Shown here piece after piece: positions 1 to 25,878 of a stretch of 64,000 nt of DNA (positions within the stretch are counted from its first letter, which is position 1; every line of letters begins with the position of its first letter). Origin of the DNA: a bacterium (GTDB taxonomy: Bacteria > CAYTYR01 > UBA6262 > DAOVJB01); contig JBDRDD010000007.1 in the NCBI GenBank assembly GCA_043821115.1, positions 6,276-70,275 on the forward strand, given 5' to 3'. The position numbers were made by a program, and so were the translations under genes. The notes below the pieces were generated by a model. That model ran no database searches. It saw only the letters and a list, made by a program, of their open reading frames with translations, and was not told the origin of the DNA.

Positions 1-3000
1 AGGGACATCTCGGTAGTATATAAAGGCGATCCCGAGGAAGTTGTCCAGGAGGCGGCGTTCGGAGATATAGACCTTGTCCTTCCCACAACGGAATTTGTGG
101 CATATAACAAGAAACTCTTCGGTGCAAAGCTTGACGCTAAGTATAAGCGCTTAAGGCTTTTGGCTATAGGCAGCAGAACACAGGGAATCTCCGATTCCAA
201 AGAGTTCAAAGGAAGGACCACATTTCAAAAAAAGGATATCTATGACATAAGTTATGTAAAAAGAAAGTATTACAAGCTCTATTTTGACTCTGCACATCTG
301 CCAATATTGAATGCTACGGAGAAGATATATATAGATGACAAGGACAACAGTAATAACCTGGACACTACGCTTCGTACGGTATATGATTATGCCAATACGG
401 TCAATTACACGGGTGATTTTGACACCTTAGACAGAGGAGAAGACTATACTATTGATTATACCAAAGGCATTATTACCTTTAACAGTCCTGTTGGATCAAA
501 TTATGTTGTTGCCGTAGCCTATGAGTACAGCGGGGGTGACGTTGGGTATAGCAATAACATCAGGATGGTAAAGAATGAGGATGAAACCCTGGTTAACCGG
601 TCTCTTAAAAACTATTATAATCTTGGTGCTACGAAGATACTCGAAGAAGGATTCATAGTAAAGATACAGGACTTGAGTAAAGATGAAGCTACAGAGATTA
701 TACTCTATGAGAATAATACCGATAAAAGCCAATTCACTTCTTATCAGATAGAAGAACTGGATTTTGACACAGGTTTTTTGAGGTTTGTAAGTGAAACACC
801 TTTCCCCGCAGAAGTCTATACTACAAATCCAACCCAAAGCAAAATAATTTATGTGGAATACAAGCATAGCGTCAACACATACCGGCTTGGTAGGATCGAT
901 ATCTTGAGGGGAAGCGAGGAGATAAGGGTTAACGGTAACAAACTCGAAAGAGATGTTGACTATCTGATTGATTATGATATAGGCATGGTGACGTTTCTCA
1001 AAGAAGATATAATAAGTGAAGATTCAGATGTAAGGATTGATTTCGAATATCTGCCTTTCGGTGGACAGCTCCAGCAGACACTCGTAGGTGCCAGAGGTGA
1101 ATTGAGCCTGCACAGGAACTGGTTTGTCGGTTCAACCATAATGTACAACTGGAGCGCTCCTCCTACATATGTGCCTGATGTAAAGGGGGCACCTGAGAGT
1201 GTCCTGGTAATGGAGGCTGACTCAAGGTATAAGTTCGAGAAGGAAGGGGTTCCTTTTAAGGGGGAAATATCCGGAGAGATTGCCAGAAGCCAGAGGGATG
1301 TGAACACTTACGGCAAGGCCATGATCGACAACATGGAAGGCTCTAAGACAGAGGATATGATGCCCACTAATAAGCAATTGTGGCTGCCGGCAAGCAACCC
1401 GGGTCAATCTGCGGATAAAAGACAGGATATCACGCTGGATAATCAGGATGTAGACAGTGAAGATATAAATTCTAATGTGTTGGATAAGGATGCCAAGCAG
1501 CAGGTGTTGACATTAGGCTACAGTCTGCCTGATACTGATTCCTGGGCGTCAGTAGTATACCCTATATCTAAAACGGGTGTGGATTATTCTCAAAAACAGT
1601 ACCTGGAACTAAAGATGTACGGAGACGGCAGTAATACGGAGTTCAATATAGACCTTGGAAGAATCAGCGAGGATATTGACAGCGATGGTGTTATGGATAC
1701 GGAAGATGCTAATAAGAACGATGAACTTGATTCCGATGAGGATAATGGTCTTGACCTTAGCCTAGACCAGTTCGGCAATAATACAAGTCTGCCTTCCAAT
1801 TACGGTGAGGACGATGGGCGTCTTGATACCGAGGATTTGGATAGAGACGGAAATCTTGATTCAGAGGGATTTATTTCAAGGTATTCCTCTCTAACAGATA
1901 CTGCCGGGACAAGTTACACGAGTGTCAGCTGGACAGGGTGGAAAACATTCCAGATTCCTCTGGATATTACTGCAGCAAATAAGAGTAGCTGGGAGAATAT
2001 TAAGCATGTGCGCCTTTGGATGACCAGGGGAACTGGAACATCCGCTTCAGGAAGTCTGAAAATAGCGGCCATCAATATCGTGGGTAACAACTGGGAAGAC
2101 GGGGAAGTGACAGGTAGTGGTAGCCTGGATGTAAGATCTATAAATAACGAGGATGATTCCGGATATGTTACATTGCCGGATTCTTTCTACAATGATATTT
2201 ATAACGAAGATCTCGATGAAGACGATGTAAAGGAGCAGGCACTATCGCTTAAATACACACTAAGCAATGGTGAAGAGGGTCATACTAAGAAGACCTTCAC
2301 TTCAGCACAGGATTACAGAGATTACAAACAGCTCAGATTCTATGTTTACGGGACGAATTCCCTGGGAGGGACTGTTTATTTCAGGATAGGGACCGAAACT
2401 GCATATTTTGAGTTTGAAAAAGTTGTGGACTGGACAGGATGGAAACAGATAAACCTAAACCTGATTGACAAAAACAGCGATTTTCTTGCCGATACCATAA
2501 TTTATGACGACCAGGAACTTACAAAGGCGGGTACACCTTCTCTTGGCAATATCACGGAACTGCGTTTTGGTGTAAGAAATAATACGGGTGCCCAGATTAC
2601 AGATGGTGAGATATGGGTAAATGACATACATCTTGCCGATCCCCAGAGTAGAGTGGGAGAGGCAAAAAGGATACATATGAGCACCAGCTATAAGGATTGG
2701 TTTTCAGTAGATGCTGATTTCAAAACACAGGACAGGAACTTTGAGACTATAGGCAAGAAGAGTGCCGGGCAGGACTCTACGCGCTATAGTGTTGATCCAA
2801 GAATAACATATTTTAAGTTCCTTCCCATAATAGCCCACTGGGATAAACAGAAAACGATTACCCCGACTACCACAGGAACCGACCTGAGCAGCAGTGCGGA
2901 AGGTACGGTGACAAGTGAGAATAAGAATATAGGTGCGGATTTCAGGTATAAAAAATGGCCTCATCTTAACACGAAGGTTTCACAGTCCTTACAAGACATA

Positions 3001-4524
3001 GACCAGCAGCAGAAGAAAGCAAGGTCTGATTCGTTTGCCGGCAGCGGAGATTATGATATACCCACAAATATCTTCATATTTCCCAAGCGATTCAAAACTG
3101 GTTACACGCGCACCAATTCTTACACTAATTATGGTGTGTTTGCAACCGGTAATGAGAACTCTCTTGAGACTATAGATGACTGGAATGGTGAGCTCAACTT
3201 CAAACAGGCATGGGGCAAGCAAATGCAATTGCACAGTTTCGCAATAACACCTTCTTACAGGCTGAAAAGGGCAGAGCTTATGAAGCAGATGCAGGCTCCC
3301 GAACGCAAGCTAAGAAACCCCCGTTATACGGAACAGAGTGCAGGTGTGCAGACTGATTTCAAGTTCTTCGGGTGGTTCAAGCCGCAGGCTAATGCTAATG
3401 TAACTTCCCGTTCCGATTACAATACAGAGGCAAGCTCATACACCGTTACCTCTAAGAACATAAGAAGGGACAGTATTATAGATACTAAAATTCCCTTCGC
3501 CGCTCGCGATATTATATCGCAGTCCAGGTTTTTAAGGACCCTGGAGATAAAGCCGTCATATAAACTTGAGAGAAAAGACCAGTACGAATTTGTACGCAGT
3601 GATTTTTACATCCTTGACAAACTGTGGGTTGATGATAAGTTAAAGGTAGACGAAGATCCAAAAACCACGTATGCAAAGGATGACTTCAGGACTGAACTTC
3701 GATGGCAACCGCTGGAATTTCTTGAGCTTAAAAAGGGATGGAAACCTATAGGTACGGTTGATACAAGGATCCAATACAATACAATTGAGGAACACAGGAC
3801 AACAACAGGAACACCTTCCGATACATTTACAACTATCTGGCCTGATTTGGAGTTTACCTTCCATAACATTGAATATTTCCCGTTATTTTACAGTTTTATG
3901 CAAAATGCCAGGTTTACTGTATGGTATTCACTAAAGGAAATAGACAGAAAGAAAATATCTCTTAACGAAACCCAGAACTGGAGATTCAAGTGGAACTTCA
4001 AGATATTCAATAAGTATACGTGGATTATGGAATATCAGGACACCCTCTCTACGGACAAGAACGCGGACGGCGTGTATCAGAAGAATAATATAGTTCAGAA
4101 GGCAGGGACTCAGGTGAATTTTAATATCAGCAAGAATGTTCGCTGTAACCTGCGATACGATGAGAATCTAAGCAAGCAAAAAGGGCAGAGCCTTAGTTTT
4201 GCAAGAAGAAAATCACCGAGTATAACAGTAGTAAGCGATCTTAGATTTCCTGCGGGTTTGCGTATTCCGCTTCTTATGAGAAAGCCCATGTATTTGCGCA
4301 ATGCCCTTGAGATTTCAACTGCCCTGGCCGTGGATATGGAAGAGAGTAATGTGGCTAAAAACAACAAGAATACATACAAAGCCGATATAAGTGCGGATTA
4401 TGATGTTAGTAATAATTTCGTATTTACACTGGGAACAAGCTACTCCAAAGTAAATTATACACAGCTTCCTCAAAATAATTACTCAACTTTTAATTTGCTT
4501 TTTAAGCTCTTAATTAAATTCTAG
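1..4524 (+). CDS. Giant surface/outer-membrane protein, 5'-partial (N-terminus upstream of window); Asp-rich thrombospondin-type-3-like Ca-binding repeats; Tyr/Trp-rich C-terminal region ending in Phe (beta-barrel-like); possibly SprA-like
   Basis: ORF track 97..4524 (1475 aa) but frame is open from base 1 (RDISVVYKGDPEE...) and the in-window Met has no signal peptide; repeats DTEDANKNDELDSDEDNGLD / DTEDLDRDGNLDSEGF; terminal residue F. Confidence 0.8.
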   Translation, partial: RDISVVYKGDPEEVVQEAAFGDIDLVLPTTEFVAYNKKLFGAKLDAKYKRLRLLAIGSRTQGISDSKEFKGRTTFQKKDIYDISYVKRKYYKLYFDSAHLPILNATEKIYIDDKDNSNNLDTTLRTVYDYANTVNYTGDFDTLDRGEDYTIDYTKGIITFNSPVGSNYVVAVAYEYSGGDVGYSNNIRMVKNEDETLVNRSLKNYYNLGATKILEEGFIVKIQDLSKDEATEIILYENNTDKSQFTSYQIEELDFDTGFLRFVSETPFPAEVYTTNPTQSKIIYVEYKHSVNTYRLGRIDILRGSEEIRVNGNKLERDVDYLIDYDIGMVTFLKEDIISEDSDVRIDFEYLPFGGQLQQTLVGARGELSLHRNWFVGSTIMYNWSAPPTYVPDVKGAPESVLVMEADSRYKFEKEGVPFKGEISGEIARSQRDVNTYGKAMIDNMEGSKTEDMMPTNKQLWLPASNPGQSADKRQDITLDNQDVDSEDINSNVLDKDAKQQVLTLGYSLPDTDSWASVVYPISKTGVDYSQKQYLELKMYGDGSNTEFNIDLGRISEDIDSDGVMDTEDANKNDELDSDEDNGLDLSLDQFGNNTSLPSNYGEDDGRLDTEDLDRDGNLDSEGFISRYSSLTDTAGTSYTSVSWTGWKTFQIPLDITAANKSSWENIKHVRLWMTRGTGTSASGSLKIAAINIVGNNWEDGEVTGSGSLDVRSINNEDDSGYVTLPDSFYNDIYNEDLDEDDVKEQALSLKYTLSNGEEGHTKKTFTSAQDYRDYKQLRFYVYGTNSLGGTVYFRIGTETAYFEFEKVVDWTGWKQINLNLIDKNSDFLADTIIYDDQELTKAGTPSLGNITELRFGVRNNTGAQITDGEIWVNDIHLADPQSRVGEAKRIHMSTSYKDWFSVDADFKTQDRNFETIGKKSAGQDSTRYSVDPRITYFKFLPIIAHWDKQKTITPTTTGTDLSSSAEGTVTSENKNIGADFRYKKWPHLNTKVSQSLQDIDQQQKKARSDSFAGSGDYDIPTNIFIFPKRFKTGYTRTNSYTNYGVFATGNENSLETIDDWNGELNFKQAWGKQMQLHSFAITPSYRLKRAELMKQMQAPERKLRNPRYTEQSAGVQTDFKFFGWFKPQANANVTSRSDYNTEASSYTVTSKNIRRDSIIDTKIPFAARDIISQSRFLRTLEIKPSYKLERKDQYEFVRSDFYILDKLWVDDKLKVDEDPKTTYAKDDFRTELRWQPLEFLELKKGWKPIGTVDTRIQYNTIEEHRTTTGTPSDTFTTIWPDLEFTFHNIEYFPLFYSFMQNARFTVWYSLKEIDRKKISLNETQNWRFKWNFKIFNKYTWIMEYQDTLSTDKNADGVYQKNNIVQKAGTQVNFNISKNVRCNLRYDENLSKQKGQSLSFARRKSPSITVVSDLRFPAGLRIPLLMRKPMYLRNALEISTALAVDMEESNVAKNNKNTYKADISADYDVSNNFVFTLGTSYSKVNYTQLPQNNYSTFNLLFKLLIKF

Positions 4525-4535
4525 GATCAACTCAA

Positions 4536-5207
4536 GTGCCGACTGTATGGGATCATGTGCTCAATATTATCTTCCCGCTTCACTGCGAGGTTTGCGGTGC
4601 AGCTTTATCTGCCGATAACAGGAGAAGGCTTTGTTCTGATTGCTGGGAGAAGATTTTACTTTCCAGGAAGGTTTTCTGCCCGCTTCCCGCGATAGACGGA
4701 AACATATACCTTGACCAGGTAAGGTCTGTGGGTAAATATGAAGGCATACTGCGCCAATGCATACATATAACCAAATACCGCAAAAAGCCGGCTCTCTCAG
4801 AAGCTCTTGGTGAGCTCATGGTGGAATGCCTGAAACGTAACCAGAAAAATATGGGCTTTGACTGTATAGTGCCTGTTCCTCTTTACAGGCGCCAGCTTCG
4901 AAAAAGAGGATTCAACCAATCGAGGTTGTTTGCGGATAGGATATCAAAACATTTCGGGGTGCCGGTTGTAAATGCAGTCTTACGGACAAAGGCTACAAAA
5001 CCCCAGTATATGCTCCAGAGACAGGAGAGGATAGCCAATCTTACAGGAGCCTTCAGGATTAAAGAGTCGCAAGCTATTCGGGGTAGGGCTGTTTTGCTTG
5101 TTGATGATGTTTATACCACAGGGACCACCGCGCATGAATGTGCCCGGGTCCTGCGTGAGGCGGGCTCTGGCAAGGTGAGTATGCTCGCACTTGCTCATGG
5201 GGATTAG
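4536..5207 (+). CDS. ComF-family protein (double zinc-ribbon plus phosphoribosyltransferase domain)
   Basis: N-terminal CxxC...CxxC (CEVCGA...CSDCWE); C-terminal PRTase motif VLLVDDVYTTGTT. Confidence 0.85.
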   Translation: MPTVWDHVLNIIFPLHCEVCGAALSADNRRRLCSDCWEKILLSRKVFCPLPAIDGNIYLDQVRSVGKYEGILRQCIHITKYRKKPALSEALGELMVECLKRNQKNMGFDCIVPVPLYRRQLRKRGFNQSRLFADRISKHFGVPVVNAVLRTKATKPQYMLQRQERIANLTGAFRIKESQAIRGRAVLLVDDVYTTGTTAHECARVLREAGSGKVSMLALAHGD

Positions 5208-6932: not shown

Positions 6933-8765
6933 ATGAAAAACAAAAAACTTATATCGTTAACAGTAATTTTAACTCTGATGGTGGTTTTATATCCTTTAGC
7001 AGGATACGCTGAGAAAGAAGTAGGTGGTGAACCTGGTTCTTTTTTGACCATGGCACAGGGTGCGAGGTCACTGGCGCTCGGAGGCGCTTTTGTAGGGCTT
7101 GCGGATGACGCTTCGGCCCTTTGGGCGAATCCAGCGGGATTACATGAGTTAAATAAGATGGAATTTGTATCGCTTTTTGCGCCGTTATGGGAGGATACTA
7201 ATTACAGTCTTCTGGGATACGCGCATCCCACGGTTAGCTGGGGAACGTTTGCAGCGGGAGTGACGCAGATATCAAGCAAGAATTTCAAGAGGAGACTCAC
7301 CGTAAGTGACAGCCCGACTAATTTTAATGTTGTGGAGCAGGCATATTTTCTCTCCTACGGCCAAGGGTTTCTTGAGAAGTTCTCAGCCGGGGCGAGTTTT
7401 AAGATGGTTAATCAGAAGATAGATACCTACAGTGATTCAAAGTTGGGCGTGGATATAGGCGCCATGTACAGGTCTTTTGATAAGAAGTTTTCGCTTGGTT
7501 TCAACGTGCAGAACGTAATGCCGCCGAAGATGAAATTAAGAGATGAATATGACACATATCCTATCATCGCCAAGATGGGCGGTGCGTATACTTTCAAACC
7601 TGAAAAATCCGAAAGTAACCGAAAGCTTACTTTATGCTTTGAGATGGATTATTCCGCTTTCACGGAATACTTAAAGACAGCAGCTGGTGTCGAGTACTGG
7701 ACAGGGCCTTTTCTGGCTCTGCGGCTAGGTAAGGACACCTATGACGATCTTACATTCGGTTTCGGCTTTGCGTACAATGACCTTCAGTTAGATTACGCGC
7801 TTGCCAATCATGAGCTTGGTCTCACCCATCGCTTTTCACTTACCTACCGGTTCGGGTACATAGGAGAATCAAAGTACAGTGAGAAGGCTATTAGCAAGAA
7901 GATCAAGGATCACGATATGAAGGGACAGATGCATTACGAAGCAGCTAAGTATTCCCAGGCTCTGGGTGAATGGGAAAAAGCTCTCATTTGGAACCCTGCT
8001 GATAAAGAAATACAGGCAAAGCTCGAAAGAGCCAATAACCAGCTCGAAGCCATAGTCAATAAGAAGCTTCTTGAGGATCGTATTGACAAGGCATATATTT
8101 CCTACGAAGAAGGAAATATGGTTGAATCAATGGAACACTGGCAGGAGGTCTCAAAGTTGGACCCGGCTAACGACAGGGCCAAGGAATATATTGAGAAAAT
8201 AAACAATGTGCTCGTAAAAGAGGAAAAGGAGATTTACCAGGAGCGTCAGAAAGAAAAAGAAATATTGATTATAGCAGGCCATATTGAGAAAGGTCAGGGG
8301 TTCTACAGGAAGAAGCAGTATGACAAGGCTATAAAAGAGTGGAAGAAAGTAATTGCCATACGTCCGGATCACCTGCAGGCTTCAAGCAAGATACGTCAGG
8401 CAGAGGATAAGATAAAGGATTCTATAAAATCACATCTTGATAATGGTATAGATTTCTATAATTCCGGGAAGACAGCCGATGCTATCCGTGAGTTAAAGCT
8501 TGTGCTGTCCTATGAAAAGGATAATGAGCAGGCTAAAGATTATCTGTCTAAGGCAGAGATTGTGGGAAAAGAGATTCGCAAAAAGGTAGACCCGCATCAA
8601 GTCAACCGGCTTTATTACCAGGCTGCTGATATGTATCTTAAGGGAAGCTACCAGGAATCTGTAGGGGTTCTGGACGAACTTTTAATTATGGATCCTGTCA
8701 ATGAAAACGCACTGAAGCTCATGGATAAAGTGCAGAGTGTTATGGAGGTGCTTGGAAAACGATGA
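6933..8765 (+). CDS. FadL/PorV-like outer-membrane beta-barrel fused to a C-terminal TPR-like helical domain
   Basis: Signal peptide; hatch-like motif GARSLALGGAFVGLADDASALWANPAGL; barrel-terminal strand THRFSLTYRF at about aa 300, then about 300 aa of helical repeats; starts 2 nt after argS stop. Confidence 0.8.
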   Translation: MKNKKLISLTVILTLMVVLYPLAGYAEKEVGGEPGSFLTMAQGARSLALGGAFVGLADDASALWANPAGLHELNKMEFVSLFAPLWEDTNYSLLGYAHPTVSWGTFAAGVTQISSKNFKRRLTVSDSPTNFNVVEQAYFLSYGQGFLEKFSAGASFKMVNQKIDTYSDSKLGVDIGAMYRSFDKKFSLGFNVQNVMPPKMKLRDEYDTYPIIAKMGGAYTFKPEKSESNRKLTLCFEMDYSAFTEYLKTAAGVEYWTGPFLALRLGKDTYDDLTFGFGFAYNDLQLDYALANHELGLTHRFSLTYRFGYIGESKYSEKAISKKIKDHDMKGQMHYEAAKYSQALGEWEKALIWNPADKEIQAKLERANNQLEAIVNKKLLEDRIDKAYISYEEGNMVESMEHWQEVSKLDPANDRAKEYIEKINNVLVKEEKEIYQERQKEKEILIIAGHIEKGQGFYRKKQYDKAIKEWKKVIAIRPDHLQASSKIRQAEDKIKDSIKSHLDNGIDFYNSGKTADAIRELKLVLSYEKDNEQAKDYLSKAEIVGKEIRKKVDPHQVNRLYYQAADMYLKGSYQESVGVLDELLIMDPVNENALKLMDKVQSVMEVLGKR

Positions 8766-10096
8766 AAAAAAAACTAATTATATCAATACTGGTCGTTACG
8801 TTAGGATGGGGTTTTGCTAATGCGGGCACATGGGAGGAATTCCGGACAGATTTCGCTCCCAACGCGAGGATAGGGCACGTGGCCATATACGATCCTAACT
8901 CGGATGCGATGGTCGTTATGGGAGAAGCGGGGGCTACGGATCAAAATATATACTCCCTTGACCTAGGCACGGGAGAATGGATAATAAAGAGCTCTTCGGA
9001 GGCTACCGTAGCCAGGGCGGACCATTCTATAGTTTATGACAGCAGCAGAAACAGGGCACTTGTTTTCGGGGGAAGCACGCTAGGAAGACAAGATGTCAAC
9101 GGCTATGAGAATGTAACGTATTACTGGAATTTTGCTACACCGGCATGGGGTGCTATAACTACAACAGGTACTGCTCCCATGGACAGGATAGACCATTCTG
9201 CGATTTATGACAGCGCTAATGATTGTATGATCGTATTTGGTGGCATCGGAGACGACGGTCTTTATAAAAATGATGTGTACAGTCTTGACCTGGCTACGGC
9301 AGTGTGGAGCCAAATAACGACAAGCGGTACCGCGCCCCAGTCAAGGTTCAAGCATTCGGCAATTTATGACTCAACTAATAACCGTATGCTGATGCTAGGA
9401 GGCAGTTCTGCTCTTAGTCTTGCCCATAGTGATCTGTGGGCACTTGACCTGAGGACGGATCCGGGGACTTTTGCGTGGAGTCAGCTTTCTACTACAGGAG
9501 ATACTTTTCCCGGACGCACGGGGCAATCAATAGTTTTTGACCCTGATACGGGAACACAAGGCTCTATTATAGTGTTCGGGGGAATGGATCCCCTTGCTAT
9601 AGAGTACAAAAATGATACCTACATTCTTGATATTGCCACTTTGACCTGGTCAAAAGTGGAGCCGGGGCTTGTTCCGCCTTCAAGACGTACGGATCATGTT
9701 GCAGTATACGATACTGATAACAACAGGATGTTTATTTTCGGTGGCTATAGCGGGACCAGTAACTTGAACAGTTGTTATACACTTGATATTACAGACCGTT
9801 GGCCGTCTGATTCCGATGACAGCGAGGTTTTTAATTACCCGAATCCATTCAAGGCCGGCGCGGAGAACACCAACATAACTTTTTACATGCAAAGCGCGGG
9901 GAAGGTTAATATCAAGATCTATACGCTGGTAGGGGGGCTGGTGAAGACATGGTCTCTAAACAGCAGCAGGGGAATAAATAAAGTCGTATGGGACGGTAAG
10001 AACGGGGAAGAAAAAGTAGTGGGCAATGGTGGCTACATATGCGTGGTTGAAAAGCCCAATTCTAATATAAAATTCAAAATAGCGGTTGCAAAATAG
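8762..10096 (+). CDS. Kelch-repeat beta-propeller surface protein with T9SS-type C-terminal sorting (Por_Secre_tail/FlgD-Ig-like) domain
   Basis: Signal peptide; repeated Kelch-like blades (ALVFGG, MIVFGG, MLMLGG, IIVFGG, MFIFGG); C-terminal tail FNYPNPF...VVWDGKN...GGYICVV...KFKIAVAK; ATGA overlap with upstream gene. Confidence 0.85.
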   Translation: MKKKLIISILVVTLGWGFANAGTWEEFRTDFAPNARIGHVAIYDPNSDAMVVMGEAGATDQNIYSLDLGTGEWIIKSSSEATVARADHSIVYDSSRNRALVFGGSTLGRQDVNGYENVTYYWNFATPAWGAITTTGTAPMDRIDHSAIYDSANDCMIVFGGIGDDGLYKNDVYSLDLATAVWSQITTSGTAPQSRFKHSAIYDSTNNRMLMLGGSSALSLAHSDLWALDLRTDPGTFAWSQLSTTGDTFPGRTGQSIVFDPDTGTQGSIIVFGGMDPLAIEYKNDTYILDIATLTWSKVEPGLVPPSRRTDHVAVYDTDNNRMFIFGGYSGTSNLNSCYTLDITDRWPSDSDDSEVFNYPNPFKAGAENTNITFYMQSAGKVNIKIYTLVGGLVKTWSLNSSRGINKVVWDGKNGEEKVVGNGGYICVVEKPNSNIKFKIAVAK

Positions 10097-10115: not shown

Positions 10116-11501
10116 ATGGCTACTCCAAAAGCGAAAATAAAACTCATAAGCAGGATCGCGTTGAAATTCAGTGCGATTGTCTGCTTTATTATCCTACTCA
10201 TAATGCTTCTTATGGCAAGCCTTATACTGCAGCAGACAAGGCAGTCATTGATAAAAGAGATGGAGATAAAAACAGAATTTTTTGCCCGCGATGTCAGGGA
10301 ATCCATGTTCCCCCAGCCGGATCCATTTCAGTTATTCTTCAGTGTTAACGAGATGATAAAAGACAAGGCTACGCTCTATGCCATCGTGCTTGACACAAAG
10401 GGAGAGATAGTTTCACATCACGACAGGGAGAGAATAGGCTCGCTTGATAAGAGTTCTGTGTCTCTTAGGGCGATGCAGAGCTCAGAGGTTCTTACCCAAC
10501 CCTACAAAAAAGGCTCGGAAGAATTATATGACATCTCTGTTCCTATCATGGTCGGAAAGGATCACAGGATAGGAACCGCACGCATAGGATTTTCCAAATC
10601 TTCCATAAATGCCGCGCTTGCAGAGAAAAGGAATAAGATTATAAGTATCACCATTGTCATGCTGGCGATTGGTGTGTTAGGGACAAGCATTGTGGTAACA
10701 CTAATGGTCAACCCGATAAATACGCTTGTTAAGGCCGCGCGCGGGATAGGTGAGGGAAAGCTGGACCAGGAGATAAATATAAAAGGTAAAGATGAGATAG
10801 GACAGCTTGCCAGGGCGTTTAGTGAAATGGTAAAAGGTCTTAAGGAAAGGGATTTTATACGAAATACCTTCGGGAAATACGTGACAAAGCAGGTTGCCGA
10901 AGCCATCCTTGAGGGGCAGCTCGAACTTGGAGGGGAGCGAAAAAAGGTTACGATACTCATGTCTGACATAAGGGGTTTTACAAAAATGAGCGAGAAACTT
11001 CCTCCCGAGGAAGTCGTGGACTTTCTAAACCTGTACTTTACGAAGATGGTGGATGTAATCAATAAGTACGAGGGAACTCTCGACAAATTCATAGGCGATG
11101 CGCTTCTTGCGGTGTTCGGCGCGCCTATAGCCCACATGGATGACGCAAGAAGAGCAGTATTTGCGGGAATAGAAATGAGCGAAGAGCTTGCGAAATTCAA
11201 TGCCGAGAGGCATAAGAACAATCAGGACCCTCTGGAGATAGGCATTGCCATTCATACAGGGGATGTTGTCGCTGGGAACATAGGTTCTGAGACCCGCATG
11301 GAGTATACAGTTATAGGAAATACCGTTAACCTTGCATCACGGGTCGAGAAGCTTAATAAGAAACTCGGTACCATGATGCTGATAACAGATGATACCTATC
11401 AAGAGGTAAAAAATGTCGTTGAAGTGAAGGATATAGAGCAGGTGAGTATAAGGGGTATAGAGAAACCCGTTAAGATATACGAGGTTGTGGGAAGAAAATA
11501 A
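10116..11501 (+). CDS. Membrane-bound class III adenylate/guanylate cyclase with HAMP domain
   Basis: N-terminal TM segments, HAMP-like linker (EIGQLARAFSEMVKGLKE), cyclase domain VTILMSDIRGFT...FIGDALLAVFGAP...IGIAIHTGDVVAGNIG. Confidence 0.9.
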   Translation: MATPKAKIKLISRIALKFSAIVCFIILLIMLLMASLILQQTRQSLIKEMEIKTEFFARDVRESMFPQPDPFQLFFSVNEMIKDKATLYAIVLDTKGEIVSHHDRERIGSLDKSSVSLRAMQSSEVLTQPYKKGSEELYDISVPIMVGKDHRIGTARIGFSKSSINAALAEKRNKIISITIVMLAIGVLGTSIVVTLMVNPINTLVKAARGIGEGKLDQEINIKGKDEIGQLARAFSEMVKGLKERDFIRNTFGKYVTKQVAEAILEGQLELGGERKKVTILMSDIRGFTKMSEKLPPEEVVDFLNLYFTKMVDVINKYEGTLDKFIGDALLAVFGAPIAHMDDARRAVFAGIEMSEELAKFNAERHKNNQDPLEIGIAIHTGDVVAGNIGSETRMEYTVIGNTVNLASRVEKLNKKLGTMMLITDDTYQEVKNVVEVKDIEQVSIRGIEKPVKIYEVVGRK

Positions 11502-19151: not shown

Positions 19152-20576
19152 TTGAAAGAACAGGCGAATATTCTTATAGTCGAACATGAAGCTTCGGTTT
19201 GTGATACCCTAAAAGGCATCCTCGCACAGGATGGCTATAATGTTGAATCGGCCACACTTGGCAAAGATGCGCTGCTACATCTGAAGGATTCTGTGTTTAA
19301 CATGGTGGTCTTGGATGTAAGTCTGCCTGATATAAACAGTCTTGACCTGCTCAGGGCTCTTAGACGGTCAAGTCCTTTTGTCTTTGTTCTTGCCACCGCG
19401 GGTGGCGGTGATTTCGAAAGGGTATTGGCTGCGGTAGAGGGAGGGGCATACAGCTATATAATGAAGCCCTGCAATAGCGACGAATTCAAGGTCATGGTAA
19501 AAAAGGGTATCGAAAGCCAGAAACAGATTCTGGTTAATCTGAAGTTACTTGAGAAGCTCAAAGAAAAGAAGGAGAAGACAGAGGATATACTATCTATATG
19601 CGAGGCGATGAGTTCGACCAATGATATGGGAACGCTTGTAAATCTTATTGTTAGCGAAATCTCGCGTTTTCTAGGTGCGAAAAAAGCATCTCTTATGCTG
19701 GTTGAGGAAGGGTTGCAGTATCTGGTTATAAAAGCTGCAAAAGGTATAGATGAGAAAATTGTAAAAGCCACCAAGATACGTATTGGTGATGGCATAGCGG
19801 GATGGATAGCACAGGAAGGTAAGCCATGGGTCGTCACGGATATTGAGCAGGACTCAAGGACCAGACAGCGTAACAAGTCCTCATATGAGACCAAATCATT
19901 CATGAGTATACCCATTAAGCTAGGTAGCAAGGTGAGGGGTGTTGTGAATATTTCCGACAGGGTAACTGAAGGGGCCTCCAGTTTCACGGAGGAGGACCTG
20001 CGCCTGAGTATGATAATAATGCGCCAGGCGGCAAGCGCTTTGCAGAACTGTTACCTTAACGAGAAGATAGCAAAGATTGACATAAAAGATAACATTACCG
20101 ATGCGTTCAACCAGAAATATCTTAATCAGAGACTGATAGAAGAGATAAGCAGGGTACACCGTTACAAGGGATGTCTTTCAGTCGTAATGCTCGATATAGA
20201 TTATTTCAAGCAGTACAATGACAGAGCCGGTTACATGATGGGCAATACGATAATAAAGGAGTTTTCTCAGATAATTAAGGAGAACATACGCGGTGTGGAC
20301 ACGATGGCGCGCTACGAAGGCGGATGTTTCGTGCTTATCCTGCCTCAAACCGATGTCAAAAGTGCATACGCGGTAGCGGAAAAGATAAGAAAGGTAATAA
20401 GCGAGTATCCTTTCCCGGAATCGCAGAAGCAGCCTGCGGGACGGGTGACCATAAGCGGGGGAATCGCGGAACTAGTAAAAGGCATGGACAAAGAAGAGCT
20501 TATTAGCAGGGCGTATCAGGCACTGTTGCAGGCTAAGGGGTCCGGTCAGAAAAATACTATTTCAATCCACACTTAA
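19152..20576 (+). CDS. Response regulator with REC-GAF-GGDEF architecture; GGDEF active-site motif degenerate (EGGCF), I-site RxxD retained
   Basis: REC (VLDVSLPD); GAF; GGDEF-fold with IRGVDTMARYEGGCFVLILPQTD instead of GG(D/E)EF. Confidence 0.9.
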   Translation: MKEQANILIVEHEASVCDTLKGILAQDGYNVESATLGKDALLHLKDSVFNMVVLDVSLPDINSLDLLRALRRSSPFVFVLATAGGGDFERVLAAVEGGAYSYIMKPCNSDEFKVMVKKGIESQKQILVNLKLLEKLKEKKEKTEDILSICEAMSSTNDMGTLVNLIVSEISRFLGAKKASLMLVEEGLQYLVIKAAKGIDEKIVKATKIRIGDGIAGWIAQEGKPWVVTDIEQDSRTRQRNKSSYETKSFMSIPIKLGSKVRGVVNISDRVTEGASSFTEEDLRLSMIIMRQAASALQNCYLNEKIAKIDIKDNITDAFNQKYLNQRLIEEISRVHRYKGCLSVVMLDIDYFKQYNDRAGYMMGNTIIKEFSQIIKENIRGVDTMARYEGGCFVLILPQTDVKSAYAVAEKIRKVISEYPFPESQKQPAGRVTISGGIAELVKGMDKEELISRAYQALLQAKGSGQKNTISIHT

Positions 20577-21863: not shown

Positions 21864-21897
21864 TTATAATATAATGATATATGACATTATATTATAA
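21864..21897 (+). promoter_or_regulatory. Perfect 13-bp inverted repeat (candidate operator) just downstream of the promoter -10
   Basis: TTATAATATAATG - 8 nt (atatatga) - CATTATATTATAA. Confidence 0.45.
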
Positions 21898-21910
21898 AGG
21901 GGGATTCTGT

Positions 21911-23353
21911 ATGCTTTTAAAAAGAAAGTTGCTTTTAGCATTTTTAGGCATATCACTTTTTATTGTTCTTGTGACAAGTATAGTTCTCATCGATAGTGGC
22001 AAAACATTGAACAAGGCAATAGAGCTTACAAGCCAGTGGAACACGGCCCAGTTAAAAATCATAGAGGCTCAGGAAGCAGAGAAAAATTACGTCCTTGAAC
22101 GCAAAGGGCTTATTCCGCACCTGGGTGCCGGTTATGAAAAGGAATTCTTCACGTCTGTCGATAGTGCGAAGGATGCGTCAAGGCGTGACAAAGAAATAGT
22201 AATTGTAATAGAAATTTACTCGGATTATTTTACAGAGGTACTGGAGAAGGACACTCTTGATGAGAAAACAATAGAAACGCTGCGTGATAAGGGCAATGAG
22301 GCGAGAAAGATTGTCTCGGAAAAAGTTGTAAGCGTTCAGAATAAAGCTGGTGACACCCAGAAGAGGATTTCATCAATACTTCTCGTCGCCTTTTTTGTGG
22401 GTGCGGGAGTCTCTGTAGGTGGTGCTGTATTCTTTTCCAGGCTTATAGCTGAACCGCTTGTGAAACTGACACGAAGCGCGCGCAAGATAGCCGAAGGTGA
22501 TATATCTCAGGAAGTTCCTGTAATAAGCCAGGATGAAATAGGGGAGATAGCTGCTGTCGTAAACAAGCTCTCCCATGAACTGTTTAAGGCGAATAAAACC
22601 CTTGCCGACGGGAAGAAAGATCTCGAGCTACAGCTTGCCAGGCATACAAAGGAACTCCAGGATAAGCAATCTGATACGATAGAGTCAGAGAGAAAGGGTG
22701 CGGTCGAGCAGCTGGTCAACGCGATAGATACCGGGCTTACCATGAAACTCAGTAACCTCCGGGCGCTTGTATACCAGATGAGAGACAAAATTCCAAAAGA
22801 AGAGAAGGCCCTTTCGTTAGATATGACAAATGTTGTAAGAAGTGTTAACCAGGCTACCAGGGTAAGCAATAATATCCTAGCGTATTTTAAGCACCCTGTC
22901 CTGAATATAGAGTTTTCAGATGTAAACCGCGCCATCCAGGAAACCTTGATGATGAAGGAAAAAGAAGGTATATTCGATGACATCAAGGTAGTGCGCAGGC
23001 TGCAGGGGGGTATTCCCCAGATTCCTCTTGACGCGAGGTACATGAAAATTGCCCTTGATAACCTCTTTACCAATGCATACCAGGCAATGAGCGGGGCGGG
23101 GGAACTTATAGTTATGACAAGCGCCGTGCCCGGTGAAATAGAGATAAAGATCACGGATTCGGGAGTCGGCGTAAGCGATGACAACAGGGGTAAGATATTT
23201 ACACCGTTTTTTACCACCAGGGAAGACAACCTCGGGCTGGGTTTGGTAGTAGTTAGGGAGATAATAAAGCAGCATCGAGGCAACATAGCGATGCAGAGTA
23301 CGGTTGGAAAAGGAACCACTTTCATAATAAAGCTGCCGGTGGTTCCGAAATAA
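21911..23353 (+). CDS. Histidine-kinase-like sensor (TM, HAMP, HATPase_c) lacking a recognisable phospho-acceptor His in the H-box position
   Basis: Complete N, G1, F, G2 boxes (LDNLFTNAYQAM, DSGVGV, IFTPFFTT, GLGLVVV); H-box position reads VNAIDTGLTMKLSNL; start set to second ATG (21911), which has an RBS. Confidence 0.85.
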   Translation: MLLKRKLLLAFLGISLFIVLVTSIVLIDSGKTLNKAIELTSQWNTAQLKIIEAQEAEKNYVLERKGLIPHLGAGYEKEFFTSVDSAKDASRRDKEIVIVIEIYSDYFTEVLEKDTLDEKTIETLRDKGNEARKIVSEKVVSVQNKAGDTQKRISSILLVAFFVGAGVSVGGAVFFSRLIAEPLVKLTRSARKIAEGDISQEVPVISQDEIGEIAAVVNKLSHELFKANKTLADGKKDLELQLARHTKELQDKQSDTIESERKGAVEQLVNAIDTGLTMKLSNLRALVYQMRDKIPKEEKALSLDMTNVVRSVNQATRVSNNILAYFKHPVLNIEFSDVNRAIQETLMMKEKEGIFDDIKVVRRLQGGIPQIPLDARYMKIALDNLFTNAYQAMSGAGELIVMTSAVPGEIEIKITDSGVGVSDDNRGKIFTPFFTTREDNLGLGLVVVREIIKQHRGNIAMQSTVGKGTTFIIKLPVVPK

Positions 23354-23372
23354 ACCAAGAAGGATTCAGCCA

Positions 23373-24398
23373 ATGAAGATCAATATGAAGAAAAGAAGCA
23401 AACTGATAAATAAGCTTATAGGGTTATTCGTACTTGTCACTATCCCTATCCTTGCGATAAGCGTTAAACTGCTTATTGCCTCCAATAAATTTGACTTGGG
23501 ATCTGTGATATACATAGCGTACAGCGTCATTATAGCTGTAATAATCGCGGTGTTCTTTATTAACCACAGCATCATACGTCCGCTGGAGCAGCTCCATGAA
23601 GGATCTGAAAAGATAAAGGACGGTGATTTCGAGCACAGGCTTGTCGTGAGGTCAAATGACGAGATAGGGGACCTGACCAACTCGTTTAACGAGATGACGG
23701 ATGACATGAGGCGAAAGATAGTAGAGCTGGGTGAGTACAACACCACCCTCAAGGATAAACTTGAGAGGGCGAGCCTCGAGCTGAAGAAAAGCCAGGAGAA
23801 ACTCCTTCATCTTGAGAAAATCTCCACAATGAAGCAGATCGTTACATCCGTGACGCATGATCTGAAAGATCCTTTAACCGGTATAAAGACCGCCGCTTAT
23901 TACCTCGGTGAGAAGATCAGCAAGGATAACCCGGCGCTTACGAATATAATACGCGACATTGAAACAGAGATAGAGTACGCCGACAATATAGTGACCAACA
24001 TACTCTCTCTGGCGCGTCCTACAAATACGGGCCTTAAGCCCACAAATATAAATGAGGTAGTTGAGAAAGCCATTGCTCTTATAACCTCGCAGGCCATATT
24101 GCAGAAGATAAAGATTGTGAAGGTCCTTCATCCGTCTCTTCCCGCAATGCTTGCCGATGATACGCAGCTTAAACAGGTATTTATTAACTTGCTTCTTAAC
24201 GTCTTCCAGAGTATGCCACAGGGAGGGGAGCTTACCATAAGTACAGCAGAGAATGCAGGCAGGCTGGAGGTTAAGATAGTTGACTCAGGCAACAATGACA
24301 GGGTGTTCGAACCTATATTCAGCTCCAGGGACAATGACAAAAACAGAGACCTGGTCATTATGACCGAGGTAGCAAGAAACAGGGAATATGACGAATAA
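23373..24398 (+). CDS. Sensor histidine kinase with intact H-box but degenerate/truncated ATP-binding domain
   Basis: HAMP; H-box SVTHDLKDPLTGI; N-box NLLLNV and DSGNN present, but G2 box replaced (DKNRDLVIM) and protein ends about 30 aa early relative to its paralog. Confidence 0.85.
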   Translation: MKINMKKRSKLINKLIGLFVLVTIPILAISVKLLIASNKFDLGSVIYIAYSVIIAVIIAVFFINHSIIRPLEQLHEGSEKIKDGDFEHRLVVRSNDEIGDLTNSFNEMTDDMRRKIVELGEYNTTLKDKLERASLELKKSQEKLLHLEKISTMKQIVTSVTHDLKDPLTGIKTAAYYLGEKISKDNPALTNIIRDIETEIEYADNIVTNILSLARPTNTGLKPTNINEVVEKAIALITSQAILQKIKIVKVLHPSLPAMLADDTQLKQVFINLLLNVFQSMPQGGELTISTAENAGRLEVKIVDSGNNDRVFEPIFSSRDNDKNRDLVIMTEVARNREYDE

Positions 24399-25878
24399 CT
24401 TTACATTGCGAGACTTGGAACAAACAAAACGTTCTCAGGAGATGAGCGTTATGACTTCGGGTCCGATAAGTATATTAATCATTGATGATGAGCCCATCAT
24501 CAGAGATACCATGGCTTGTATCTTTACTGACGAAGGCTACCAGGTGGTGGTTGCTTCTACAGGTACGGAAGCAATAGCGCTTGGGAAAACCTCGTTTTTC
24601 AACGTGGCTATCATAGATTTAAAATTGCCGGACATGAACGGTCTTGAGGTCTTAGGCGCTATCAGGCAGTCAAATCCCCTGATATGCGCGCTTCTTATCA
24701 CCTCACATCCGACTACTAATACCCTTATAAGCGCGGTAAAAGCGGAAGCTTACGATTATATAAGAAAGCCTTTTGACATAAATCACATAAAGCTTGTCGT
24801 CAAGCGCGGCGTGGAACGCCAGCGCCTCTTCATAGAGAATGAAAAACTGCTTAAAAGTCTGACCGGGGAGAAGAGGAAGCTCGAGGCTATACTGCAGGTC
24901 AGTGAAATGATGAGCTCCATACTAAACCTTGATAAGCTGGTGAACTTTCTTGTTGTAAAATCAATGGACGTTCTTGAAGCCAAGCGCGGTTCCATAATGC
25001 TCCTTGATAGTAATGAGAGGCATTTGTTCATAAAAAGCGCCAAGGGCTTAAGCGAGCATATAGTAAAAGACACCAAGGTTAAGCTGGGAGAGAGGATCTC
25101 GGGATGGGTTGCCCAGGAGGGGAAACCGCTGCTCGTGGCAGATGTTGAAAAGGACCTGCGTCTTCAGAGGAAAAACAGACCCCAGTATATCACAAAATCA
25201 TTTTTGAGCGTTCCTCTTAAGCTTGAGGATAAGGTAATAGGAGTGATAAACCTTACGGATAAGCTCAAGAGTCCCAACGGTGTATTCACTGACGAGGACC
25301 TTAAATTCCTATCCATCATAGTCCAGCAGGGTGCGGTTGCCATAGAGAACGCGAAGTTATACAAGAAGGTGAGCTGGCTTGCGATTACTGACGCGTTAAC
25401 GGAGCTATTCAACCAGCGCTATTTCCAGGTGCGTCTGGCTGAGGAAATTAACCGTGCAAGGCGTTACGTTCGTCCGCTGTCGCTGATCATGCTTGATATA
25501 GATTATTTTAAGAACTACAATGATGTAAACGGCCATCTTAAGGGGAATATCCTGCTTCGCGGTATAGCGCAGATACTTAAGAACAGTGCCCGAGGCGTTG
25601 ATATACTCAGCCGTTACGGTGGTGAGGAATTTGTGGTGATACTGCCGGAAACAGATCTTGCTGACGCCCAGGCTGTAGCTGAGAAAATACGAAAGGCAGT
25701 GGAGGATACAGTGTTCGAGGGAGAGGAAAAGCAGCCCTTGGGAAAAATTACCATAAGCGGCGGCGTGGCTGTGTACCGTCAGAATATAACGGAAGACCAG
25801 TTTATAGGAAGGGCGGATGAAGCGCTCTACAGGGCTAAGGAACTGGGAAGAAATAAAATTTGTGTTTATGAGCAATAA
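24388..25878 (+). CDS. Response regulator diguanylate cyclase (REC-GAF-GGDEF, canonical GGEEF)
   Basis: REC (IIDLKLPDMNG); GAF; I-site RGVD and A-site SRYGGEEFVVILPETD; true start may be an internal Met near 24448. Confidence 0.9.
   Translation: MTNNFTLRDLEQTKRSQEMSVMTSGPISILIIDDEPIIRDTMACIFTDEGYQVVVASTGTEAIALGKTSFFNVAIIDLKLPDMNGLEVLGAIRQSNPLICALLITSHPTTNTLISAVKAEAYDYIRKPFDINHIKLVVKRGVERQRLFIENEKLLKSLTGEKRKLEAILQVSEMMSSILNLDKLVNFLVVKSMDVLEAKRGSIMLLDSNERHLFIKSAKGLSEHIVKDTKVKLGERISGWVAQEGKPLLVADVEKDLRLQRKNRPQYITKSFLSVPLKLEDKVIGVINLTDKLKSPNGVFTDEDLKFLSIIVQQGAVAIENAKLYKKVSWLAITDALTELFNQRYFQVRLAEEINRARRYVRPLSLIMLDIDYFKNYNDVNGHLKGNILLRGIAQILKNSARGVDILSRYGGEEFVVILPETDLADAQAVAEKIRKAVEDTVFEGEEKQPLGKITISGGVAVYRQNITEDQFIGRADEALYRAKELGRNKICVYEQ

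Follow-up and report, generated by a model that had tools for sequence, protein, structure and literature searches.

The first 4,524 nucleotides of the 64,000-nucleotide stretch of bacterial DNA analysed here (the window; contig JBDRDD010000007.1 of assembly GCA_043821115.1) encode a giant, N-terminally truncated outer-membrane protein that is homologous to SprA/Sov, the outer-membrane translocon of type IX secretion systems (T9SS). It represents a compact and divergent form of SprA, encoded by an Elusimicrobiota-like organism and distinct from the canonical SprA of Bacteroidota, and we consider it likely that it serves as the outer-membrane translocon of a T9SS-type route. An earlier sequence-only reading of the window had offered this identity as a speculation; it has since gained support from the curated hidden Markov model (HMM) TIGR04189, from a family-profile match to the solved SprA of Flavobacterium johnsoniae, and from fold matches to the same protein.

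Homology and fold identity of the window protein with SprA

Frame 1 of the forward strand is open from base 1 to a stop codon at 4522-4524, a run of 1507 codons that agrees with the sequence-only reading of a giant, 5'-truncated frame of more than 1500 codons. This is far longer than expected by chance for DNA at 43% GC, and the list of open reading frames (ORFs) contains none of comparable length on the opposite strand. A database search recovered the full-length form, a protein of 1682 aa that is 100% identical to the window protein (locus tag ABH868_01880, hereafter P0001), lies on a 137-kb contig of a metagenome-assembled genome at NCBI, and is annotated as 'hypothetical protein'. The window edge cuts the 5' end of the gene, leaving 175 N-terminal residues outside and P0001 residues 176-1682 inside. 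Recovery of the N-terminus, which the sequence-only reading had proposed as a check, revealed a Sec signal peptide (MRTKIYLLLLAALLCSFCMVGIALA, with cleavage before EDN), and the terminal Phe at the other end of the chain, the beta-signal, is invariant across a family alignment of 30 members. Signal peptide and beta-signal together establish an outer-membrane protein signature.

The NCBIfam model TIGR04189 ('T9SS outer membrane translocon Sov/SprA'), whose curated cut-off is 200 bits, matched the window fragment with E=2.6e-50 and 170.8 bits, a score under the cut-off because 175 residues are missing, and matched full-length P0001 with 210.2 bits. Relatives of P0001 scored 204, 162, and 142 bits, and by this HMM the family therefore straddles the equivalog boundary, making the result a borderline one. 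We built a family profile from 30 diverse members that share only 30-40% identity (alignment A1), and this profile matched the solved F. johnsoniae SprA (6h3j_A, 6h3i_A) at E~3e-32 in three collinear blocks within profile positions 132-1141 (Table 1). Searching the fragment directly against Protein Data Bank (PDB) sequences with phmmer gave no match, and Pfam returned only a sub-threshold DUF2460 for the fragment and the full-length protein, with neither TSP_3 nor SprA_N in this member.

We computed AlphaFold2 models for two pieces of the chain that overlap, using 48 aligned sequences for each. The one covering P0001 1-1200 (m2083160dfafa) has a mean predicted local distance difference test score (pLDDT) of 79.1 and a predicted TM-score (pTM) of 0.62, and the model of window residues 309-1507 (P0001 484-1682) has a mean pLDDT of 83.4. 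SprA chains were the only strong PDB matches of both half-models; for P0001 1-1200, Foldseek aligned them with E=2.6e-54 and TMq 0.56-0.57. A C-terminal beta-barrel had been suspected from the Tyr/Trp/Asn-rich composition of a long region ending in Phe, and beta-barrel prediction had been suggested as a check; the AlphaFold2 model places 28 consecutive long strands there, over the last ~640 residues. Counting strands of at least 10 residues over the two overlapping partial models, a length heuristic, gives 4+4+28 = 36, and the SprA barrel has 36 strands (PMC10994853). The sequence profile and the models together demonstrate homology and fold identity with SprA.

Within the N-terminal strand block, invariant columns of the family alignment include Y182, G184, E188, A194-D197, and P203. 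The DYxIDYxxGxxTF motif of the small beta-domains that follow occurs at P0001 310-351 and 478-526; it aligns with SprA YTFNPQLGYISL and DYSVDYQLGRVQI, and the second copy falls in the block aligned with SprA 588-889. These domains also gave weak, sub-threshold matches to phage distal-tail/tail-tube models (TIGR02217, NF052337, PF09343; E 1e-3 to 3e-4), with which they probably share a small beta-domain fold and no phage relationship. The four strands that we read as barrel-wall hairpins (534-544, 549-560, 575-588, and 594-608) are predicted by both models with pLDDT ~80-90. Two jelly-roll sandwiches, whose fold tentatively recalls the carbohydrate-binding module CBM11 (PF03425), then flank disordered acidic loops in the models, and the second of these domains is common to SprA residues ~1158-1500.

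The acidic loops correspond to the Asp-rich internal cluster of the sequence-only reading, which we locate at window nt ~1660-1875. There are four DxDxDG-type loops (DIDSDGVMD, DANKNDELD, DSDEDNGLD, and DLDRDGNLD, at P0001 733, 744, 752, and 787), with G728, E732, E743, D744, E755, D756, G758, and D787 invariant in the 30-member alignment. Since its acidic and Gly residues do not vary among 30 members at 30-40% identity, the cluster is a conserved feature and not low-complexity noise. The loops are modelled as low-pLDDT, non-regular segments, and the last of them aligns with SprA 1158-1170, DVEDINRDNTMST. Their earlier description as 'TSP3-like calcium-binding repeats' stands as a resemblance at the level of the DxDxDG motif, with three conserved loops of this kind, and fails at the level of the domain, as the TSP_3 HMM gave no Pfam match even at E<=1; in place of TSP3 domains, the predicted extracellular cap carries acidic loops of the DxDxDG type. 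Judging by the motif, they probably bind Ca2+.

CTD cargos, PorV-family barrels, and a candidate transport route

The three cassettes noted in the window by the sequence-only reading, each pairing a cargo bearing a T9SS C-terminal domain (CTD) with a PorV-like barrel, were recovered by curated HMMs above cut-off in every case (Table 1): cargos scored 29.6-34.4 bits with TIGR04183 (cut-off 23 bits) and barrels 136-201 bits with NF033709 (cut-off 90 bits). All six cassette proteins have signal peptides. Both unfused PorV-like proteins (33623-34612 and 49550-50506) end in Phe, the TPR-fused barrel ends in ...LGKR, and the cargos end in a basic, Lys-containing strand typical of type-A CTDs. The barrel at 33623-34612 matched the solved PorV 6h3i_F, the partner of SprA, directly by phmmer (E=1.3e-6). 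The same genome thus encodes PorV-family carriers and CTD-bearing substrates alongside the SprA-like gene, and the position of each cargo gene beside its own PorV-like gene suggests a dedicated carrier or anchor per cargo.

Besides the TPR region fused to the PorV-like barrel at 6933-8765, a TPR lipoprotein follows cassette 2, and in relatives a separate TPR lipoprotein gene stands ahead of genes for a PorV-like barrel and for a CTD cargo of the M6-protease type (for example, L008:3330-5539). TPR proteins look like recurrent partners of PorV-like carriers, a hint of the Rosetta-stone type.

In the mechanism we propose, cargos that carry a Sec signal peptide at one end and a type-A CTD at the other would arrive in the periplasm and pass from below into the water-filled lumen of the SprA-like barrel. 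By analogy with F. johnsoniae, a PorV-family barrel would dock at a lateral opening and capture the CTD of the cargo with its loops, and the carrier-bound cargo would exit sideways to the cell surface. The acidic DxDxDG loops and jelly-roll domains would probably form and stabilise the extracellular cap, possibly via Ca2+. The lateral-opening route with PorV-bound cargo is established for F. johnsoniae SprA, which has a closed extracellular cap and a lateral opening to the membrane surface with PorV docked across it; there, release of the carrier-cargo complex requires a proton-driven motor (PMC10994853). For the protein described here, the route of transport, a lateral gate, the binding of Ca2+, and the source of energy are all inferred.

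Several observations weigh against the assignment as a T9SS-type translocon. Structural-alignment identity to SprA is only 11-16%, the last ~550 residues have no significant sequence alignment to SprA with the family profile, and more distant family members fall under the TIGR04189 cut-off at 142-162 bits. P0001 is also ~700 residues shorter than SprA (1682 vs 2403 aa), and no GldK/L/M/N motor-ring, PorU, PorZ, SprE/PorW, Plug, or PPI subunit was found among the window ORFs scanned. Regarding size, the family ranges over ~1610-1890 aa, under the canonical SprA size of ~2300-2500 aa, which is a descriptive and not a defining criterion for SprA/Sov; comparison of block boundaries indicates that the ~700-residue difference is distributed along the whole chain, with no single domain lost.

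Table 1. Features of the SprA-like protein, its alignment with SprA, and T9SS-related and neighbouring genes of the window
Feature	Window position	Strand	Residues	Evidence
SprA/Sov-like outer-membrane translocon gene, 5'-truncated	1..4524	+	P0001 176-1682	stop 4522-4524
Signal-peptide helix			P0001 2-23	model
Low-confidence periplasmic extension			P0001 24-105	model
Long strands			P0001 108-256	model
End of conserved N-terminal strand block, with most conserved family motif VVYKGDPEEVVQEAAFGD	1..243	+	P0001 176-256	aligns with SprA 149-266
Small beta-domains with repeated DYxIDYxxGxxTF motif (DYTIDYTKGIITF, DYLIDYDIGMVTF)	268..1065	+	P0001 265-530	model and hmmsearch
Four long antiparallel strands, read as barrel-wall hairpins	1075..1299	+	P0001 534-608	
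Two beta-sandwich (jelly-roll, CBM11-like fold) domains, predicted extracellular cap	1315..2577	+	P0001 614-1034	
Asp-rich DxDxDG-type loops, putatively Ca2+-binding	1660..1875	+	P0001 729-800	
C-terminal barrel wall, 28 consecutive long beta-strands, then terminal Phe	2596..4515	+	P0001 1041-1680	
Collinear block 1			profile 132-248; SprA 149-266	hmmsearch
Collinear block 2			profile 419-662; SprA 588-889	hmmsearch
Collinear block 3			profile 793-1141; SprA 1158-1602	hmmsearch
Cassette 1: PorV/PorQ-family outer-membrane barrel fused to C-terminal TPR region, carrier candidate	6933..8765	+		NF033709 136.3 bits; TPR matches in PDB
Cassette 1: Kelch beta-propeller cargo with T9SS type-A CTD	8762..10096	+	CTD 359-441/444	TIGR04183 29.6 bits; Kelch Pfam
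Cassette 2: NHL-repeat cargo with T9SS type-A CTD	31265..33613	+	CTD 700-780/782	TIGR04183 32.9 bits; NF035926 NHL
Cassette 2: PorV/PorQ-family barrel	33623..34612	+		NF033709 201.3 bits
Cassette 3: cargo with FlgD-Ig-like region and T9SS type-A CTD	47395..49524	+	CTD 621-707/709	TIGR04183 34.4 bits
Cassette 3: PorV/PorQ-family barrel	49550..50506	+		NF033709 196.7 bits
ComF-family phosphoribosyltransferase-like gene, N-terminal Cys-rich motif	4536..5207	+		TIGR00201 E=1.5e-33, below cut-off

Distribution, synteny, and other explanations

A scan of one genome per species found SprA-like relatives in at least 270 species-level genomes. The best 80 loci come overwhelmingly from metagenome-assembled genomes (MAGs) of Elusimicrobiota/Elusimicrobia/Endomicrobiales, with one complete 2.7-Mb chromosome among them. 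A few loci carry other labels (L003, L008-L010, L013, L015, L016, and L035): several MAGs with this diderm-type SprA-like gene beside lptF/G are labelled 'Clostridia bacterium', and there are single Sumerlaeota, Caldiserica, and Ignavibacteria labels. Such labels probably reflect mislabelled taxonomy or faulty binning and not genuine occurrence. The top 120 relatives of the GltX encoded in the window bear only Elusimicrobiota-type phylum labels (54-60% identity), and we therefore place the organism, on this sequence comparison, in or beside Elusimicrobiota and outside the Fibrobacterota-Chlorobiota-Bacteroidota (FCB) group.

For synteny, ORFs were called in the relatives' loci and clustered by BLAST, and 75 of these loci contain the SprA-like gene. 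The gene sits in a conserved housekeeping block comprising lptF/G, the SprA-like gene, and a ComF-like gene, which gap, pgk, and secG often follow. Directly upstream, divergently transcribed lptG (TIGR04408 227 bits) and lptF (TIGR04407 236 bits) are present in about two-thirds of the 75 loci (as at L008:7376-9603, minus strand); the ComF-like gene is at most four ORFs downstream in 51 of the 75 and is the next ORF in 42. The upstream side often holds metK and ahcY as well as genes for a TPR lipoprotein, for a PorV-like barrel, and for an M6 metalloprotease that bears a T9SS CTD. Given this housekeeping synteny, the data argue for an old, vertically inherited SprA-like gene and against recent transfer.

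The association with carriers and cargos extends to the relatives. Using HMMs built from the window's own copies, which yield conservative single-round numbers, we found a PorV-like gene within two genes of 15 of the 20 CTD proteins in the relatives' loci, compared with a background of 2%; in about a quarter of loci, a CTD/PorV-like cassette lies at most 10 kb away from the SprA-like gene. SprA-like genes thus co-occur with PorV-family barrels and CTD cargos.

The same synteny raises the question of whether an SprA homologue was recruited to outer-membrane or lipopolysaccharide biogenesis, as an LptD-like or other envelope-assembly barrel and not a secretion pore, since lptF/lptG neighbour the gene in most relatives' loci that contain it and its block is all housekeeping (metK, ahcY, gap, pgk, secG). 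Old vertical inheritance explains this arrangement equally well, however, and the window is rich in PorV-family and CTD partners, which show linkage in relatives too. The fold and HMM matches are moreover specific to SprA, whereas LptDE structures were only generic barrel matches (Foldseek E~7e-4, TMq 0.18) and neither the fragment nor the full-length protein matched an NCBIfam LptD model. On this fold specificity we rejected an LptD-like identity, and we regard recruitment to envelope assembly as very unlikely. Another reading is a large soluble or surface adhesin with thrombospondin-type-3 repeats that forms no membrane pore; the sequence-only reading had named such an adhesin, lacking both SprA similarity and a predicted beta-barrel, as what would refute its proposal, and both features proved to be present. 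Asp-rich DxDxDG motifs and CBM11-like jelly-rolls are indeed common in adhesins and glycan-binding surface proteins, but TSP_3 is missing from the Pfam matches, the 28 consecutive C-terminal strands are long, amphipathic, and predicted with high pLDDT, the terminal Phe is invariant, and SprA is the top structural match of both halves. The barrel prediction and the SprA structural matches exclude a soluble TSP3-type adhesin, to which we assign a practically negligible probability.

A further alternative accepts the SprA fold and questions its traffic: the barrel might work in another direction or on another substrate, such as uptake of large substrates or export of a polymer without CTDs, while the CTD/PorV-like cassettes use a different route. 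The family is very divergent from characterised SprA, its cap has CBM-like domains, and neither a T9SS motor nor a sortase was found among the window ORFs scanned, all of which would fit such a role. Yet no alternative translocon for CTD proteins is known, and PorV-like and CTD genes accompany SprA-like genes both in the window and in the loci of relatives. The family has also kept SprA-specific blocks, among them the part of the cap with which CTDs make contact in F. johnsoniae. We consider this alternative unlikely and favour the T9SS-type translocon.

Beyond the SprA-like gene and the cassettes, the window holds housekeeping and signalling genes and a complete rRNA operon. The ComF-like gene starts 12 nt past the SprA-like stop; we know of no T9SS link for it. 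Just 3' of the PorV-family gene at 33623-34612 lies a c-di-GMP-I-GGC riboswitch at 34698-34782 (+), which scored 65.1 bits with RF03167 (gathering score 59). Directly downstream of the riboswitch are genes for a Tgl-like TPR lipoprotein (34832-35377) and for a secreted protein of 1302 aa that contains a GH113-like domain (35400-39308), an arrangement that suggests cyclic di-GMP (c-di-GMP) control of a surface or glycan-related operon adjoining a T9SS-type cassette. Signalling genes are dense at 10116-11501, 19152-20576, 21881-25878, and 55254-62021 (+) and include several histidine kinases and HAMP/PAS/Cache sensors; two encode response-regulator diguanylate cyclases. Considered alongside the riboswitch, these genes point to extensive c-di-GMP signalling. 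Just after a tRNA-Glu gene, two adjacent ORFs at 29302-30920 (+) have prepilin-type N-terminal methylation motifs and are pseudopilin/minor-pilin-like, and the rRNA operon at 39680-45050 (+) comprises 16S, tRNA-Ile, tRNA-Ala, 23S, and 5S, which would permit an exact phylogenetic assignment of the genome.

Relation to known systems and significance

The closest characterised relatives are SprA of F. johnsoniae (PDB 6H3I/6H3J/8GL6/8GL8) and Sov of P. gingivalis, which, like the window protein, are Sec-exported, single-chain giant outer-membrane beta-barrels. F. johnsoniae SprA is the top fold match for both halves, shares with it the collinear sequence blocks, one jelly-roll cap domain, and one acidic loop, and likewise occurs in a genome with PorV-family barrels and type-A CTD cargos; by the length heuristic, the strand count estimated for the window protein (~36) is similar. 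The two differ in size (1682 aa here vs 2403 aa), in sequence (11-16% structural-alignment identity and no direct phmmer match), in the two extra conserved DxDxDG loops of the family described here, and in host, which here is Elusimicrobiota-like and outside the FCB group; none of the window ORFs scanned could be identified as a motor component, Plug, PPI, SprE, or SkpA.

The cassettes recall the type-B CTD/PorP-SprF pairs and specialised T9SS shuttles of Bacteroidota, in which a cargo gene likewise stands beside a dedicated small barrel of the PorV/PorQ/PorP superfamily (PMC9143113, PMC12618676). Here, by contrast, the CTDs are type-A-like (TIGR04183) and the barrels score as PorV/PorQ and not as PorP/SprF. 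Bacteroidota use one PorV for many type-A cargos (PMC10994853).

Published descriptions confine T9SS to Bacteroidota (Abby et al. 2016, PMC4793230) or extend it at most to FCB phyla, with T9SS 'absent from other bacterial phyla' (PMC11285876). The T9SS-like gene sets of Fibrobacterota, Chlorobiota, Ignavibacteriota, Gemmatimonadota, and Cloacimonadota (PMC11285876) resemble our case in placing T9SS components outside Bacteroidota, whereas the family described here is centred on Elusimicrobiota. Full-text literature queries returned only incidental co-mentions and no paper linking T9SS to Elusimicrobiota. What was already available is the curated HMM TIGR04189, which recognises the full-length protein, and MAGs commonly bear annotations of T9SS sorting domains; what is new is that a subfamily of compact SprA proteins occurs in a lineage outside the FCB group, accompanied by carrier cassettes for individual cargos.

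It is possible, though in our judgement doubtful, that a minimal T9SS-type route, passed on by vertical inheritance, exists in Elusimicrobiota and in allied uncultured lineages, and that it consists of a compact SprA-like barrel and per-cargo PorV-like carriers and operates without the GldKLMN/PorKLMN motor-ring or PorU/PorZ. If so, the minimal route would be an ancestral or streamlined form in which the carrier-cargo complex is released by other means, and the core of translocon, carrier, and CTD would predate, or be separable from, the Bacteroidota motor. Whether the translocon functions without this motor becomes a question testable by genome scans.

More generally, an SprA homologue that is conserved and syntenic, is ~30% smaller than canonical SprA, and occurs with cargo and carrier cassettes in hundreds of genomes of Elusimicrobiota type would widen the phylogenetic range of the translocon and offer a smaller model for structural study of the essential parts of the SprA barrel and cap. 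The SprA-like protein may also offer an export route for the many CTD-tagged proteins of Elusimicrobiota-type uncultured bacteria.

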